Assembly: GCA_031268315.1 (NCBI GenBank)
Contig: JAIRXK010000010.1
Coordinates: 1-32,000, forward strand
Source of the DNA: Puniceicoccales bacterium
Lineage (GTDB): Bacteria > Verrucomicrobiota > Verrucomicrobiia > Opitutales > JAIRLM01
DNA: 32,000 bases
Reading direction: 5' to 3'
Position numbers and translations under genes: made by a program. Below the pieces are notes generated by a model. That model saw nothing but the letters and a program-made list of their open reading frames with translations. It made no database searches and was not told the origin of the DNA. Below are positions 19,400 through 22,376 of the stretch, piece by piece. Numbering within the stretch: position 1 is the stretch's first letter; the number at the start of each line of letters is the position of its first letter.

Positions 19400-19478
19400 G
19401 GCGCAAAGGATTTTAAAATATTTTACCTCGGATCCATATCGCCATTGCAATACTGGCGATTAATCTTGGCTTTTAAAT
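19400..19478 (+). mobile_element. Decayed remnant of the right end of the IS element seen at 22652..23128
   Basis: aattagctggcgcaaaggatttt...cctcgg-atccatatcgccattgcaatactggcgattaatcttggcttttaaat aligns by eye with 23030..23128 (aattagttggagaagatttttt...cctccgccaaatcggtaatcgccattgcaataatggcaattaatcttaggctttaaat). The similarity stops at 19478/19479, inside the last sense codon and stop codon of the USP gene. Confidence 0.6.
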
Positions 19479-20849
19479 GTGAACATAGAGGGCAAGATAG
19501 CCATTTTTAATGAAATCATCATGCTTCATAAATTCTTCTTCCAAGATAACTATCGGCGGGTTACAACTGGTGGAATCAAGTTGCACAAAACTTTTCCCAT
19601 CCTTATTACAAATATAAGTTAGATAATGTCCGTTATTCGCAATGCCTTGATGGCAAACCATTCCGGCCAATTTATATTTGCACGGCGTTGTGTTGTCTAC
19701 CATAAATTTAGCCATATCTATGCTTTCTGGGAGAAAAAAATCATTAGAAAGTTTCACCTTTTCGGTGCCGTCGAATTCAAACCGGTGCAAATGAAAAAGT
19801 AAAAATGGTGGCATCCCATGGAGTAAATTTTCTACTGTAGCATCAATCTTTGTGCCATTGGAAGTTTCCCATGGAATAAGTTTTTTTTTAGTATAATCAA
19901 GTAAGCCTTGCTCTAAATTATGGCATGAATTTAAAGTGATTGGCACTACAGTAAAGCGATCATAGTTGAGATCCCGAAAATTATCTTTTGAATCAATGGA
20001 TTCTATTAGAGTACGAAAACGACCCTCAAATGGTAATTTTTTGTTATATGATTCGTCCATAATTGCATCGAGTAATGGTAGTAAAAATTCAACTACATCC
20101 TCTTGATAACCGGCTGAAAGTTTCATGGAAAATTTTCCAATTTCATCTAAACTTTTCGAAAAGTCATAATCGAAAATTTGTAGTTGATATCGCTTCTCCC
20201 CCGTAGCCAGGTATTGGAAAATTTTTTTCAGCTCTTGGATGAATCGACTTTCGGCGTTCTCCATAATTTCATTTCGAAATGGTACAATTGCGAACAGCAA
20301 TTGCAATGCTGCATTCAGGTAGCAATGATTATTGTAATTTTCTAGATTAAATTTTGAAGGGCTAATAAGATCTGCAAATGAAGCAGTCGGTATTTGATCT
20401 TGGTGCAGTTGAATTGACTCCATCTCTTCCTCTGATGAATCATGCTCGCTGGTTCCTTCCTCGGGAGGAGGAGCTTCCACGGGTATGGGAATTTCGTCAA
20501 TTGGGGGAAGATTAATATTTTTATCTTCCACTAATGAATCATGCTTGCTGATTTCTCCTTCGAAAAGAGGAGCTTCCGTAGATATGGAAGTTTCGCTGCT
20601 TGAGGAAGAATCAGTATTTTTATCGTTTTTAGATTTCCAATAATACGCAGCGATTACCACGCAAAAAATTGATACGGCGACACACAAGCCGTAGATGAAT
20701 GTGGGCATTTGAAGGATAATTCCTGCCGCAATAGTTGCGATGGAAATGGTGACACAGGACACGATTACGGCTATTTTTAAAGCAGCCGGAAAGAGGGTTT
20801 TTGAAAATTCACGAAAAGTTCCTCTTATATTCTCCCAGACAATAGGCAT
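19473..20849 (-). CDS. Ubiquitin-specific protease (USP/UBP, peptidase C19)-type deubiquitinase with N-terminal Inc-like bilobed membrane anchor, paralogue 1
   Basis: 458 aa. Bilobed hydrophobic region at aa 22-70 (AALKIAVIVSCVTISIATIAAGIILQ-MPTFIYGLCVAVSIFCVVIAAYYW). Cys box FNLENYNNHC176YLNAALQLLF (consensus GLxNxGNTCYxNSxLQ). QQD-type box GYQEDVVEFLLPLLD. His box YKLAGMVCHQGIANNGH408Y fits Y-x-L-x-[SAG]-[LIVMFT]-x2-H-x-G-x(4,5)-G-H-Y exactly. It is followed by FVQLDSTS (cf. W..FDDS.V). Confidence 0.88.
   Translation of the reverse strand: MPIVWENIRGTFREFSKTLFPAALKIAVIVSCVTISIATIAAGIILQMPTFIYGLCVAVSIFCVVIAAYYWKSKNDKNTDSSSSSETSISTEAPLFEGEISKHDSLVEDKNINLPPIDEIPIPVEAPPPEEGTSEHDSSEEEMESIQLHQDQIPTASFADLISPSKFNLENYNNHCYLNAALQLLFAIVPFRNEIMENAESRFIQELKKIFQYLATGEKRYQLQIFDYDFSKSLDEIGKFSMKLSAGYQEDVVEFLLPLLDAIMDESYNKKLPFEGRFRTLIESIDSKDNFRDLNYDRFTVVPITLNSCHNLEQGLLDYTKKKLIPWETSNGTKIDATVENLLHGMPPFLLFHLHRFEFDGTEKVKLSNDFFLPESIDMAKFMVDNTTPCKYKLAGMVCHQGIANNGHYLTYICNKDGKSFVQLDSTSCNPPIVILEEEFMKHDDFIKNGYLALYVHI
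20431..20628. repeat. 99-bp tandem duplication (2 diverged copies) encoding the acidic linker of USP paralogue 1
   Basis: atgaatcatgctcgctggttccttcctcgggaggaggagcttccacgggtatgg begins at 20435, and atgaatcatgcttgctgatttctccttcgaaaagaggagcttccgtagatatgg begins at 20534, a 99-bp period. The protein segments are ..STEAPLFEGEISKHDSLVED / ..PVEAPPPEEGTSEHDSSEEE. The segment is absent from paralogue 2. Confidence 0.8.
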
Positions 20850-20929
20850 GGCGATGGATGCATTTTTAGGAAAATGCTTTTGAAGTCAAGAAGGAAAACG
20901 CAATTTTGTGTTTCATCAAATCGCTACCT

Positions 20930-21048
20930 CGATCGCATAAATGTTTTTTTGATTTTCTTTTAATTTTTTTTGCGTTGACAGATCATATAAATGCTCAGCC
21001 AACGCTTGCGTATATTTTTAAAGCCATTTGCGCTTTTTGCGACAAAAA
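20930..21048. repeat. Intergenic repeat R, copy 2 (left end of duplication unit 2), with the 48-bp core at 21001..21048
   Basis: Same sequence family as 19232..19339, offset by about 1698-1709 bp. That equals the offset between the two USP stop codons (19473 and 21171). Confidence 0.9.
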
Positions 21049-21170
21049 GCCCCATAAATTTCAGCCGAAAAAGCCACCCCTTTTTAGCATCCGCGGCTCA
21101 TTTTCCGACAGTAATGATTTTGAACGATGTGGTCGGGGTAATGGACTGTTTTCCAGGGCAGTCGTAGTAA

Positions 21171-22376
21171 TTATTCGATGTGAACATAGAGGGCAAGATA
21201 GCTATTTTTAATGAAATCTTCATGCTTCATAAATTTTTCTTTTGAAATAGCCGCCGCCCTTTTATTACCAAGGGAGTCAAGCTGCATAAAGCTTTCCCCA
21301 TCTTCACTAAGAATATAAGTTAGATAATGTCCGAAATAATTAGTGCCCCGATGGCAAGCCATTCCGGCCAATTTATATTTGCACGGCGTTGTGTTGTCTA
21401 CCATAAATTCAGCCATATCTATGCTTTCTGGGAAAAGAAAATCATTAGAAAGTTTCTCCATTTTGCCGCTGATCCAGTCAAAACGTTCCAATTGAAAAAG
21501 TAAAAATGGAGGCATCTCCTGGAATAAATATGTTATTCCAGTATCAGTCTTTTTGCCATTGGGCGATTCTATTTGATTTTCCCCTGTAAGAAAATCTTCT
21601 TTCGTAAAATTATGCAAACTTTGCTCTAAAGTAAAGAATGTGCTTGCGGTAATTCGCACTACTTTACTACGAACAGTGCGGAAATGATAAAAATCATCTT
21701 TTTGTTCAATGATATCTTCTTTTTCGAGCGAAAGGACATCAAATAACAATTTTGTGCTATGTATTTCTTTTTCAATTATTTCGAGGAAGTGCTCTAACAA
21801 GCCAACGGCATCTTCTTGACGTCCGTTAGCAAAATACGTAGGCACTATTTTAGCGAAAATTTCCGAAAAGTCATGATCAAAAACTTGCAGTTGATTCCAG
21901 TTTTCTCCCGTAGCCAGGTATTGAAAAATTTTTTTCACCACTGGGGTCAATTGGCCTTCGGAATTTGCTATAATTTCATTTCGAAATGGCACAATTGCGA
22001 ACAATAATTGCAACGCCACATTCAGATAGCAGTGATTATTACAATTTCTTAAATTAAATTTTGAAGGTTTAATAAGATTTTTTAATGAAGCAGTCGATAT
22101 TTGTGTTTTTTCCAATTGAATTGATTCCGCTTCTTCCGCTGATGAAATACAATGGCTGGTTTTTTTCCAATAATACGCAGCGATCACCACGCAGAAAATT
22201 GATACGGCAGCACAGAAGACATAGATGAGTGCGGGCATTTGAAAGGTGATCCCTGCTGCAATAGTTGTGACGGAAATGGTGACACAGGTTAGGATTATGG
22301 CTATTTTCGTGTCAGTCGAAAAAAAGTTTTCAAAAGGACCATGAAAATTCTCTTCTGTATTTTTAACAGCAGTCAT
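21171..22376 (-). CDS. USP (peptidase C19)-type deubiquitinase with N-terminal Inc-like bilobed anchor, paralogue 2
   Basis: Start moved to ATG 22376 (MTAVKNTEENF...), which aligns at DNA and protein level with the paralogue 1 start; the track start 22415 is a TTG. Bilobed hydrophobic KIAIILTCVTISVTTIAAGITFQ-MPALIYVFCAAVSIFCVVIAAYYW. Cys box FNLRNCNNHCYLNVALQLLF. GRQEDAVGLLEHFLE. His box YKLAGMACHRGTNYFGHY. FMQLDS. Confidence 0.85.
   Translation of the reverse strand: MTAVKNTEENFHGPFENFFSTDTKIAIILTCVTISVTTIAAGITFQMPALIYVFCAAVSIFCVVIAAYYWKKTSHCISSAEEAESIQLEKTQISTASLKNLIKPSKFNLRNCNNHCYLNVALQLLFAIVPFRNEIIANSEGQLTPVVKKIFQYLATGENWNQLQVFDHDFSEIFAKIVPTYFANGRQEDAVGLLEHFLEIIEKEIHSTKLLFDVLSLEKEDIIEQKDDFYHFRTVRSKVVRITASTFFTLEQSLHNFTKEDFLTGENQIESPNGKKTDTGITYLFQEMPPFLLFQLERFDWISGKMEKLSNDFLFPESIDMAEFMVDNTTPCKYKLAGMACHRGTNYFGHYLTYILSEDGESFMQLDSLGNKRAAAISKEKFMKHEDFIKNSYLALYVHIE

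Follow-up and report, generated by a model that had tools for sequence, protein, structure and literature searches.

The stretch of DNA considered here, 32,000 nucleotides (nt) long and called the window throughout, comes from contig JAIRXK010000010.1 (positions 1 to 32,000, forward strand) of assembly GCA_031268315.1, a metagenome-assembled genome (MAG) labelled Puniceicoccales (Verrucomicrobiota) at NCBI. On its minus strand two neighbouring genes encode eukaryotic-type ubiquitin-specific proteases (USPs), USP-A and USP-B, in which a complete catalytic domain is preceded by an N-terminal hydrophobic hairpin. The family to which they belong is multi-copy, tandemly arranged and fast-evolving. 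We consider it reasonably probable that both proteins are host-directed, membrane-tethered deubiquitinase (DUB) effectors of a protist-associated endosymbiont. Their basic USP identity is already known from the NCBI annotation, which describes both as ubiquitin carboxyl-terminal hydrolases; interest lies rather in the taxon, in the compact design of hairpin plus USP, in the fast evolution and multiple copies of the family, and in a hint that effectors resembling the chlamydial inclusion membrane (Inc) proteins occur beyond the Chlamydiae.

The two open reading frames (ORFs), at 19473-22376, lie where an earlier reading of the window, made without database searches (the sequence-only reading), had placed them, and every motif quoted there is present. 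Their products are identical to the NCBI entries MDR1437648.1 and MDR1437649.1, from a contig of 35,767 bp that is also held in JGI/IMG. The locus is laid out as follows:

19473..20849, minus strand: USP-A gene, ATG start, 458 aa, MDR1437648.1; N-terminus, hairpin, linker and USP domain
19476..20354, minus strand: USP-A catalytic domain (residues 166-458), with C176, the QED box at 249, H408-Y409 and D425
20355..20636, minus strand: USP-A linker, residues 72-165 (about 94 in all), with many Ser, Pro and acidic residues
20637..20774, minus strand: USP-A bilobed hydrophobic hairpin, residues 26-71, from hydropathy
20850..20965, minus strand: USP-A 5' flank, of which about 90 nt match the region upstream of USP-B and about 115 nt a tandem unit on another contig, L001 (blastn)
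21171..22376, minus strand: USP-B gene, ATG start, 401 aa, MDR1437649.1; paralogue with a short linker
22167..22304, minus strand: USP-B bilobed hydrophobic hairpin, residues 25-70, from hydropathy
22377..22470, minus strand: USP-B 5' flank, homologous to that of USP-A; includes TTG 22415, an unlikely start

USP-A and USP-B are paralogues, with 54% identity over 330 aa covering linker and catalytic domain and 46% over the N-terminal 109 aa. An alternative TTG at 22415 would lengthen USP-B to 414 aa. Since this codon falls inside a conserved stretch of about 90 nt that, on alignment, both genes have in common 5' of their start codons, the ATG at 22376 is taken as the homologous start of USP-B; the NCBI call is 401 aa as well. 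A consensus scan of the USP-A flank picked out a -35/-10-like pair at 20889..20862 (TTGACT, 16 nt, AAAAAT), and the scores of the promoter and terminator consensus scans did not exceed shuffle expectation.

Catalytic domain, fold and membrane anchor

The USP assignment lies far above chance, because the matches to the Pfam profile UCH (PF00443) score 111.9 bits for USP-A (E 5e-32) and 104.6 bits for USP-B (E 8.5e-30) against a gathering cut-off of 23.9 bits; they span profile positions 3-236 of 254. Together with an intact catalytic triad, this hidden Markov model (HMM) search confirms the membership of USP/C19 proposed in the sequence-only reading. The Cys box reads NNHCYLN[AV]ALQLLF in both proteins and contains C176 in USP-A and C116 in USP-B. 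A QQD-like box is present (QEDVVEFLLPLLD / QEDAVGLLEHFLE), the His box YKLAGM[VA]CH.G....GHY provides H408 and H350, respectively, and the motif F.QLDS provides D425 and D367, the third catalytic Asp lying 17 residues past the His in both cases. Directly after the catalytic His stands an aromatic gatekeeper, Y409 in USP-A and Y351 in USP-B, a feature used as a DUB criterion in work on the Simkania enzymes (PMC10643670). The best sequence matches in the PDB are USP15, USP28, USP8 and USP7. With USP7 the alignment takes in about the whole catalytic core (USP-A 168-447 against USP7 12-302), and C176, H408 and D425 line up with the catalytic Cys, His and Asp of USP15, in its GNTC, GHY and FDD motifs. 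The fingers (residues 271-365) contain a single Cys, so that the zinc ribbon is absent from them, as it is from some eukaryotic USPs.

AlphaFold, run on USP-A residues 151-458 with a 39-sequence alignment, returned a model with a pLDDT of 92.3 and a pTM of 0.91. When this was compared with the PDB by Foldseek, the top 50 matches were all eukaryotic USP catalytic domains (E 3e-22 to 2e-20, TM-score 0.73-0.79, identity 16-22%), among them USP36, Ubp8, USP7, USP9X, USP2, USP30, USP46 and USP47. The structural check suggested along with the sequence-only reading thus came out in its favour, with a confident USP fold and USP7 among the matches. The model aligns over 316-358 columns with complete eukaryotic USP cores and has a block of strands at its residues 126-216 that is consistent with a fingers subdomain. 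From the model, we read the domain as a normal thumb-palm-fingers USP rather than a fingerless one like TssM, the secreted USP of Burkholderia pseudomallei/mallei, which uses type II secretion, has no fingers and carries an Ig-like domain (PMC10719079). No TssM chain occurs among the best 60 PDB sequence matches or the best 50 structural matches. In profile, motifs and fold, USP-A and USP-B show every USP-family feature examined, and both are predicted to have isopeptidase activity.

With eukaryotic USPs (USP7, the USP9X/USP34 group, USP46, USP36 and yeast Ubp8) the two proteins share the fold, the Cys, QQD and His boxes and, by alignment, the triad. They differ from them in their low identity (17-30%, or 38% to the metagenomic protein P0017 described below), in the missing zinc-ribbon Cys of the fingers and in having NNHC for GNTC, but also in their bacterial context and in an N-terminal hairpin that resembles those of bacterial effectors.

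This hairpin is built alike in both proteins: after a polar segment of about 24 residues come two hydrophobic helices, each some 21 residues long and linked back to back by Q-M-P, with Kyte-Doolittle means over 19 residues of up to 2.5-2.7. Hydropathy therefore bears out the description, given from the letters of the window, of an N-terminus with some 25 polar residues ahead of two hydrophobic helices. The hairpin sequence is kept in four family members, ending in SIFCV.IA.YYWK, and its ratio of non-synonymous to synonymous substitution rates (dN/dS) of 0.47 between USP-A and USP-B makes it more constrained than most of the protein. It is not a classical signal peptide, because the polar region is too long, the hydrophobic stretch has the length of a transmembrane helix and a second such stretch follows directly. 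The N-terminus has a net positive charge, and a KSK/KK stretch lies past helix 2. A full-length model of USP-A, made with a five-member family alignment, is of low confidence (pLDDT 36.6) and puts helices at residues 22-46 and 50-77; in the linker of this model every block of 10 residues has a mean pLDDT below 40. The linker of USP-B is about 60 residues shorter by alignment.

An N-terminal bilobed hydrophobic domain, the feature by which Inc proteins are recognised, is thus found in USP-A and USP-B. Like chlamydial Inc proteins they open with a short polar segment, continue with some 45 residues of bilobed hydrophobic domain and have a functional domain that is predicted to face the host. However, membership of an Inc family is not supported, as the best match, to the NCBIfam model Chlam_inc_CT214, reaches 12.3 bits against a cut-off of 90 (E 0.066), and no Pfam Inc family was matched. 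With no sequence tie to Inc families and a genome that is not labelled chlamydial, USP-A and USP-B are not Inc proteins, yet by analogy they might work like an Inc-anchored enzyme. ChlaDUB1/Cdu1 is a membrane-tethered DUB of clan CE, whereas USP-A and USP-B belong to clan CA/C19. Membrane-anchored USPs also exist in human cells, where USP30 (mitochondrial outer membrane) and USP19 (endoplasmic reticulum) are held by a terminal transmembrane segment and face the cytosol. These use a single transmembrane helix and eukaryotic targeting, in contrast to the hairpin of USP-A and USP-B; USP30 is among the structural matches (5ohk, TM-score 0.77), and no specific sequence affinity of USP-A and USP-B to USP30 or USP19 was seen.

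Bacterial DUBs of the USP type are rare, those published being Burkholderia TssM and three Simkania enzymes. SnUSP1-3 of Simkania negevensis possess hydrophobic regions and are active as DUBs, and the proteome of the vacuole membrane was seen to include SnUSP3; the catalytic domains of the three start some 100-190 residues in, past hydrophobic regions thought to attach them to a membrane (PMC10643670). The view that all anchored chlamydial DUBs belong to other clans, which formed part of the sequence-only reading, is thus outdated (PMC10643670), and the novelty which it saw in anchored bacterial USPs had been pre-empted by the published SnUSP1-3 and TssM. As far as their published description goes, the SnUSPs resemble USP-A and USP-B in being USPs of an intracellular bacterium of the PVC group, a lifestyle that is presumed for the present genome, with complete active-site residues and gatekeeper, several paralogues and a presumed eukaryotic origin. 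They differ in belonging to the Chlamydiota, in being described as ‘large proteins’ and in their demonstrated activity, whereas USP-A and USP-B come from a genome labelled Verrucomicrobiota, have 458 and 401 aa and are predicted to be active. The tandem, fast-diverging layout and the sharply defined N-terminal hairpin set the present locus apart from them. TssM is likewise a bacterial USP with a hydrophobic region N-terminal to its catalytic domain and is directed at host ubiquitin, but it is fingerless and has the Ig-like domain, whereas the model of USP-A aligns with full eukaryotic cores and has fingers-like strands. No verrucomicrobial USP was described in the literature searched; if the taxon label holds, bacterial USPs are extended to the Verrucomicrobiota.

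Distribution, origin and evolution of the family

The family is tiny and restricted to one lineage. A word-indexed search of 5.8 billion proteins returned only the two window proteins, three fragments from the JGI sample 3300042636 and a single 154-aa copy from another Puniceicoccales MAG (P0007, LBI69_03325), which stops just past the Cys box. An exhaustive HMMER search of 1.84 billion representatives yielded 13,732 USP-domain proteins, with scores of 130-350 bits inside the family and below 90 bits outside it. This search also revealed a third copy in the MAG of the window, on a contig of 45,286 bp, consisting of two adjacent ORFs (MDR1437733.1/MDR1437734.1; P0155 and P0010); it is a pseudogene, since it is split and has GYY in place of GHY (His to Tyr). 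A scan of 185,579 GTDB species genomes with the family profile gave 54 pattern matches and no confirmed relative.

The best match outside the family is TRFO_29746 of Tritrichomonas foetus (30% identity, 88.8 bits), a large eukaryotic USP, and the other best ones are unnamed proteins of 2000 aa. At 38% identity over 182 aa, P0017 has a canonical Cys box (GNRGSTCYLNSSLQ); overall the nearest eukaryotic USPs are 27-38% identical to the family. P0017 belongs to the JGI project series (3300042606, 3300042618 and 3300042636) from which the family members and the closest outgroup come; the series further contains ORFs of about 6.5 kb, free of introns, that encode large USPs akin to the T. foetus protein. 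An attempt to infer the donor from the 2000-aa metagenome proteins was dropped, as these form a broad group of large eukaryotic USPs that are 25-37% identical to the Tritrichomonas protein. The one locus that the metagenome profile scan returned (L002) has no bearing here, since it is a gene like yeast Ubp3 and its contig is fungal, and high-scoring multi-domain matches (e.g., one of 3205 aa with 10 stretches) were merged vertebrate USP17/USP18-like tandem arrays, not close relatives.

The USP genes lie in a genuine bacterial genomic context, between asd and a YkuD transpeptidase gene on one side and ispH on the other; the window also encodes ispG, mraY, an aminotransferase, components of an opp-type ABC transporter, plsY, rpe and lptE. 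The GC content of the USP island is 0.35-0.38 as against 0.46-0.52 for the backbone, and one more feature lies between USP-B and ispH:

22652..22894, plus strand: DDE transposase fragment, an 80-aa ORF (PF01609 DDE_Tnp_1, 24.1 bits against a cut-off of 23)

This fragment, which also matches DDE_Tnp_1_3 (E 1.1e-5), is a degraded insertion sequence (IS) element at the edge of the low-GC island. Low GC, the transposase remnant, the eukaryotic nature of the outside matches and the lack of a GTDB relative all argue for a foreign origin. The simplest interpretation is that the genes were acquired from some eukaryote and then amplified locally.

Tandem copies are not confined to the window. L001, an independent contig from 3300042636, has a USP gene at 1-1002 and, after a gap of 269 nt, a second gene at 1271-1579 that opens with the same anchor, in the same head-to-tail arrangement. 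On two further contigs from 3300042636, L004 and L005, a USP copy stands beside DNA 95% identical to positions 1-492 of the window, and it follows from this flank that a close relative has a copy at another locus. Compared by blastn and in a MAFFT alignment, the nucleotide sequences of L004 and L005 agree completely (100%) in their opening 100 nt, fall to 56% identity at 201-300, stay near 80% through the middle and return to 95-99% towards the 3' end and in the flank. This mosaicism suggests recombination or gene conversion among copies or strains.

Constraint along the protein is uneven. By the Nei-Gojobori method, overall dN/dS ranges from 0.54 to 1.04 across family pairs and is about 0.8; the surroundings of the Cys box have 0.08-0.46, the C-terminal palm 0.45-0.78 and the linker 1.86. 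For the fingers (residues 271-365), five pairs were compared, of which four have ratios of 0.99-1.47 and one has 0.68, with counts of approximately 83/227 non-synonymous versus 16/58 synonymous differences. Diversifying selection and relaxed constraint on the surface that would hold ubiquitin both fit these values, while core and anchor are kept. On the whole, the pattern would fit a functional enzyme with a rapidly evolving substrate surface.

Two further observations may be added. L008, a 3.2-kb contig from 3300042636 with a GC content of 0.27 that was binned in an ‘Oscillospiraceae’ MAG, encodes at 1708-3063 a 451-aa USP (MDR1364386.1) that is 27% identical to USP-A, has weakly hydrophobic N-terminal segments and a linker of Ser/Asn/Pro repeats, and adjoins a bacterial gene of the Met_gamma_lyase family. 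A second bacterial lineage in the sample may thus have a USP of its own, with the proviso that the binning of such a short contig is unreliable. At the left end of the window, an ORF at 1-430 (minus strand) that runs past the edge begins with MSNFQQMNPLDYQ and has a 276-aa counterpart in L004 (1331-2161); it has no significant family match, only faint ones to MgtE_N and Armadillo (E about 0.1), and in L004 and L005 the USP gene lies about 400 nt past its 3' end.

Proposed host-directed function and alternatives

The sequence-only reading had placed the two proteins in a chlamydial setting, on an inclusion membrane. This framing is not supported. Apart from the label of the MAG, the closest named relatives of the IspG encoded in the window are likewise Puniceicoccales MAG proteins, at 54% and 40% identity, and no chlamydial name occurs among the IspG matches listed, the majority of them being unnamed. 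As the window is without rRNA, the taxon label rests on NCBI and on the relatives of IspG, whose low identities suggest a fast-evolving lineage. Verrucomicrobial endosymbionts of protists form a cluster that includes Ca. Nucleococcus, Ca. Pinguicoccus and Ca. Organicella (PMC8204192 and PMC11257099). Relatives in this ‘Nucleococcus cluster’ are nuclear or cytoplasmic endosymbionts (PMC8204192), and the termite-gut Opitutales families LL51 and UBA9783 have small genomes of low GC content (PMC8204192 and PMC11257099). The present lineage is probably an endosymbiont of a microbial eukaryote.

In the explanation that we favour, a verrucomicrobial (Puniceicoccales/Opitutales-like) lineage would have taken the USP domain from a eukaryote, and USP-A and USP-B would be catalytically competent on conjugates of host ubiquitin or ubiquitin-like proteins rather than on bacterial substrates. 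The hairpin, with two transmembrane helices, a turn of 2-3 residues and both termini on the same side, would hold the enzyme at a membrane and leave its flexible linker and USP domain exposed to the host compartment. There, ubiquitin could be stripped from the symbiont boundary or from nearby host proteins, and ubiquitin-dependent autophagy or degradation would be blunted. The catalytic core and the anchor would be conserved under such a regime while the fingers surface and the linker diverge fast. The most plausible route of delivery is type III secretion with subsequent insertion into a membrane of host origin. The proteins would then be analogous in function to the Simkania USPs and to chlamydial Inc proteins, without belonging to the Inc family. 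Three entries from elsewhere in the window bear on the route:

818..1264, plus strand: CesT/SicP-type class I type III secretion chaperone (Pfam CesT, E 4.9e-20)
6247-9324 and 9537-12011, plus strand: paralogous ORFs of 1025 aa and 824 aa, GC 0.36/0.38 (hydropathy)
31651-32000 and past the right edge, plus strand: N-terminal part of a T2SSE-family (GspE/PilB) ATPase (Pfam E 9.8e-21)

Type III delivery is preferred because of the Inc-like design of the USPs, the recurrence of this design at 6247-9324, 9537-12011 and 25796-26434, and the CesT/SicP-type chaperone at 818-1264, which also matches NCBIfam SicP (E 2.3e-9, under the SicP cut-off). The 1025-aa and 824-aa ORFs again have a polar N-terminus of about 25 aa and a hairpin (roughly residues 27-69), unrelated in sequence to the USP anchor. 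They had been described in the sequence-only reading as a neighbouring anchored kinase-like pair: the hairpin design stands (6247-12011), but the kinase label is not supported, as no Pfam family matches either ORF at E<=1e-3 and a faint match to a Bud32 kinase (NCBIfam, E 0.0017) covers residues 550-622 of the 824-aa ORF, i.e., one of the two.

Several points weigh against this explanation. Genes for type III secretion machinery were not found in the 32,000-nt window, and its sole secretion ATPase, at the right edge, is of the type II secretion/type IV pilus kind. By default, the positive-inside rule would place the hairpin in the inner membrane of the bacterium and the USP domain in its cytoplasm. 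The fingers dN/dS above 1 is not statistically significant, the counts being small. The overall dN/dS of about 0.8, the split third copy (P0010 and P0155) and the truncated P0007 show that some copies are decaying, and relaxed constraint is a possibility to be kept in mind. The endosymbiotic lifestyle and the host are circumstantial, resting on the taxon label, divergent housekeeping genes (IspG at 54%) and protist-like genes in the JGI series; activity, secretion and localisation, finally, are all points that we infer.

The alternative that survives best, though we think it rather unlikely, keeps the enzyme on the bacterium: the hairpin would be held in the envelope and the exported USP would remove host ubiquitin from the symbiont surface, as proposed for TssM. 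Such a display would suit a symbiont lying naked in the cytoplasm or nucleus, and the ‘Nucleococcus cluster’ relatives are endosymbionts of these compartments (PMC8204192); the T2SSE-family ATPase gene that starts at 31651 could be read in the same sense, given that TssM combines an extended hydrophobic region with a USP, is secreted by the type II route and was suggested by its authors to be targeted to the bacterial surface (PMC10719079). However, an alpha-helical hairpin with both termini in the cytoplasm is not known to expose a domain beyond the Gram-negative outer membrane, a cleavable signal peptide is missing (24-residue polar region, hydrophobic stretch of about 21 residues), and type III delivery is favoured instead by the CesT-type chaperone gene and by several ORFs nearby that are of Inc-like design.

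Less likely again is a reading as relics of horizontal transfer, in which the genes came from a eukaryote, were multiplied through IS activity and are now functionless and on their way to becoming pseudogenes. The overall dN/dS of 0.54-1.04, the split GYY copy in the same MAG, the premature end of P0007 just past the Cys box, the low GC and the adjoining transposase fragment would all agree with this. Yet both window copies are full-length with all catalytic residues intact, their 5' flanks are conserved, intact copies occur in at least two related genomes, and constraint is distributed as a working enzyme predicts (0.08-0.46 at the Cys box, 0.47 in the hairpin, about 1-1.5 in the fingers).

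Ubiquitin-like conjugation systems are also found in bacteria, and with the N-in/C-in topology that the charge distribution gives by default, USP-A and USP-B could be imagined as inner-membrane proteases that process, in the bacterial cytoplasm, a bacterial ubiquitin-like or other Gly-Gly-ended substrate. We regard this as very improbable. The genes near the USPs are asd, the YkuD transpeptidase gene, ispH and a transposase remnant, with no E1, E2, ubiquitin-like or related gene among them, and to our knowledge the known bacterial ubiquitin-like systems use JAB/MPN-type or other peptidases, not USPs. Absence from the 185,579 GTDB species genomes argues against a bacterial housekeeping role, and the closest outside relatives are eukaryotic.

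That host USP genes were misjoined to a bacterial contig during assembly or binning is scarcely credible in spite of their low GC and of the eukaryote-like USP genes in the same JGI series, since bacterial genes flank them on both sides of one contig, they are compact and intron-free with a short conserved 5' flank, their anchor is unlike that of any eukaryotic USP match, their layout is seen again on three independent contigs (L001, L004 and L005) and in one more MAG, and they are only 27-38% identical to the nearest eukaryotic USPs.

Within the favoured explanation of membrane-tethered effectors acting on the host, a wider proposal can be put forward tentatively, namely that a verrucomicrobial endosymbiont of a protist, outside the Chlamydiae, independently built an Inc-like repertoire in which a hairpin module delivered by type III secretion is joined to various host-directed domains, comprising the USPs, the 1025/824-aa pair and a 212-aa protein. 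The USPs would be tandemly amplified and recombine, and an arms race with the host ubiquitin system would impose diversifying selection on the fingers surface that binds ubiquitin. The hairpin ORFs and the type III chaperone hint that membrane-inserted effectors in the style of Inc proteins are not exclusive to Chlamydiae. The locus may also offer a handle on how protist endosymbionts (the ‘Nucleococcus cluster’ and relatives) cope with host ubiquitin, and USP domains of about 300 residues with naturally hypervariable fingers would be material for the study of substrate recognition.

Other genes of the window

The 212-aa ORF at 25796-26434 (minus strand) has a polar N-terminus and a hydrophobic block of 70 residues (27-96), and looks like a small Inc-like membrane protein; no family matched it. 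Four further ORFs are likewise without a family match: 26599-27954 (minus strand), 24188-25735 (plus strand), 15942-16931 (minus strand) and 18748-19152 (minus strand). Among these, the ORF of 451 aa has a low GC content (0.35) and weak coiled-coil/SMC-like matches, and the one of 515 aa has a hydrophobic N-terminus that resembles a signal peptide. The single tRNA of the window, tRNA-Thr (CGT) at 17006-17081 (minus strand), stands some 2.4 kb away from the USP island rather than at its border.

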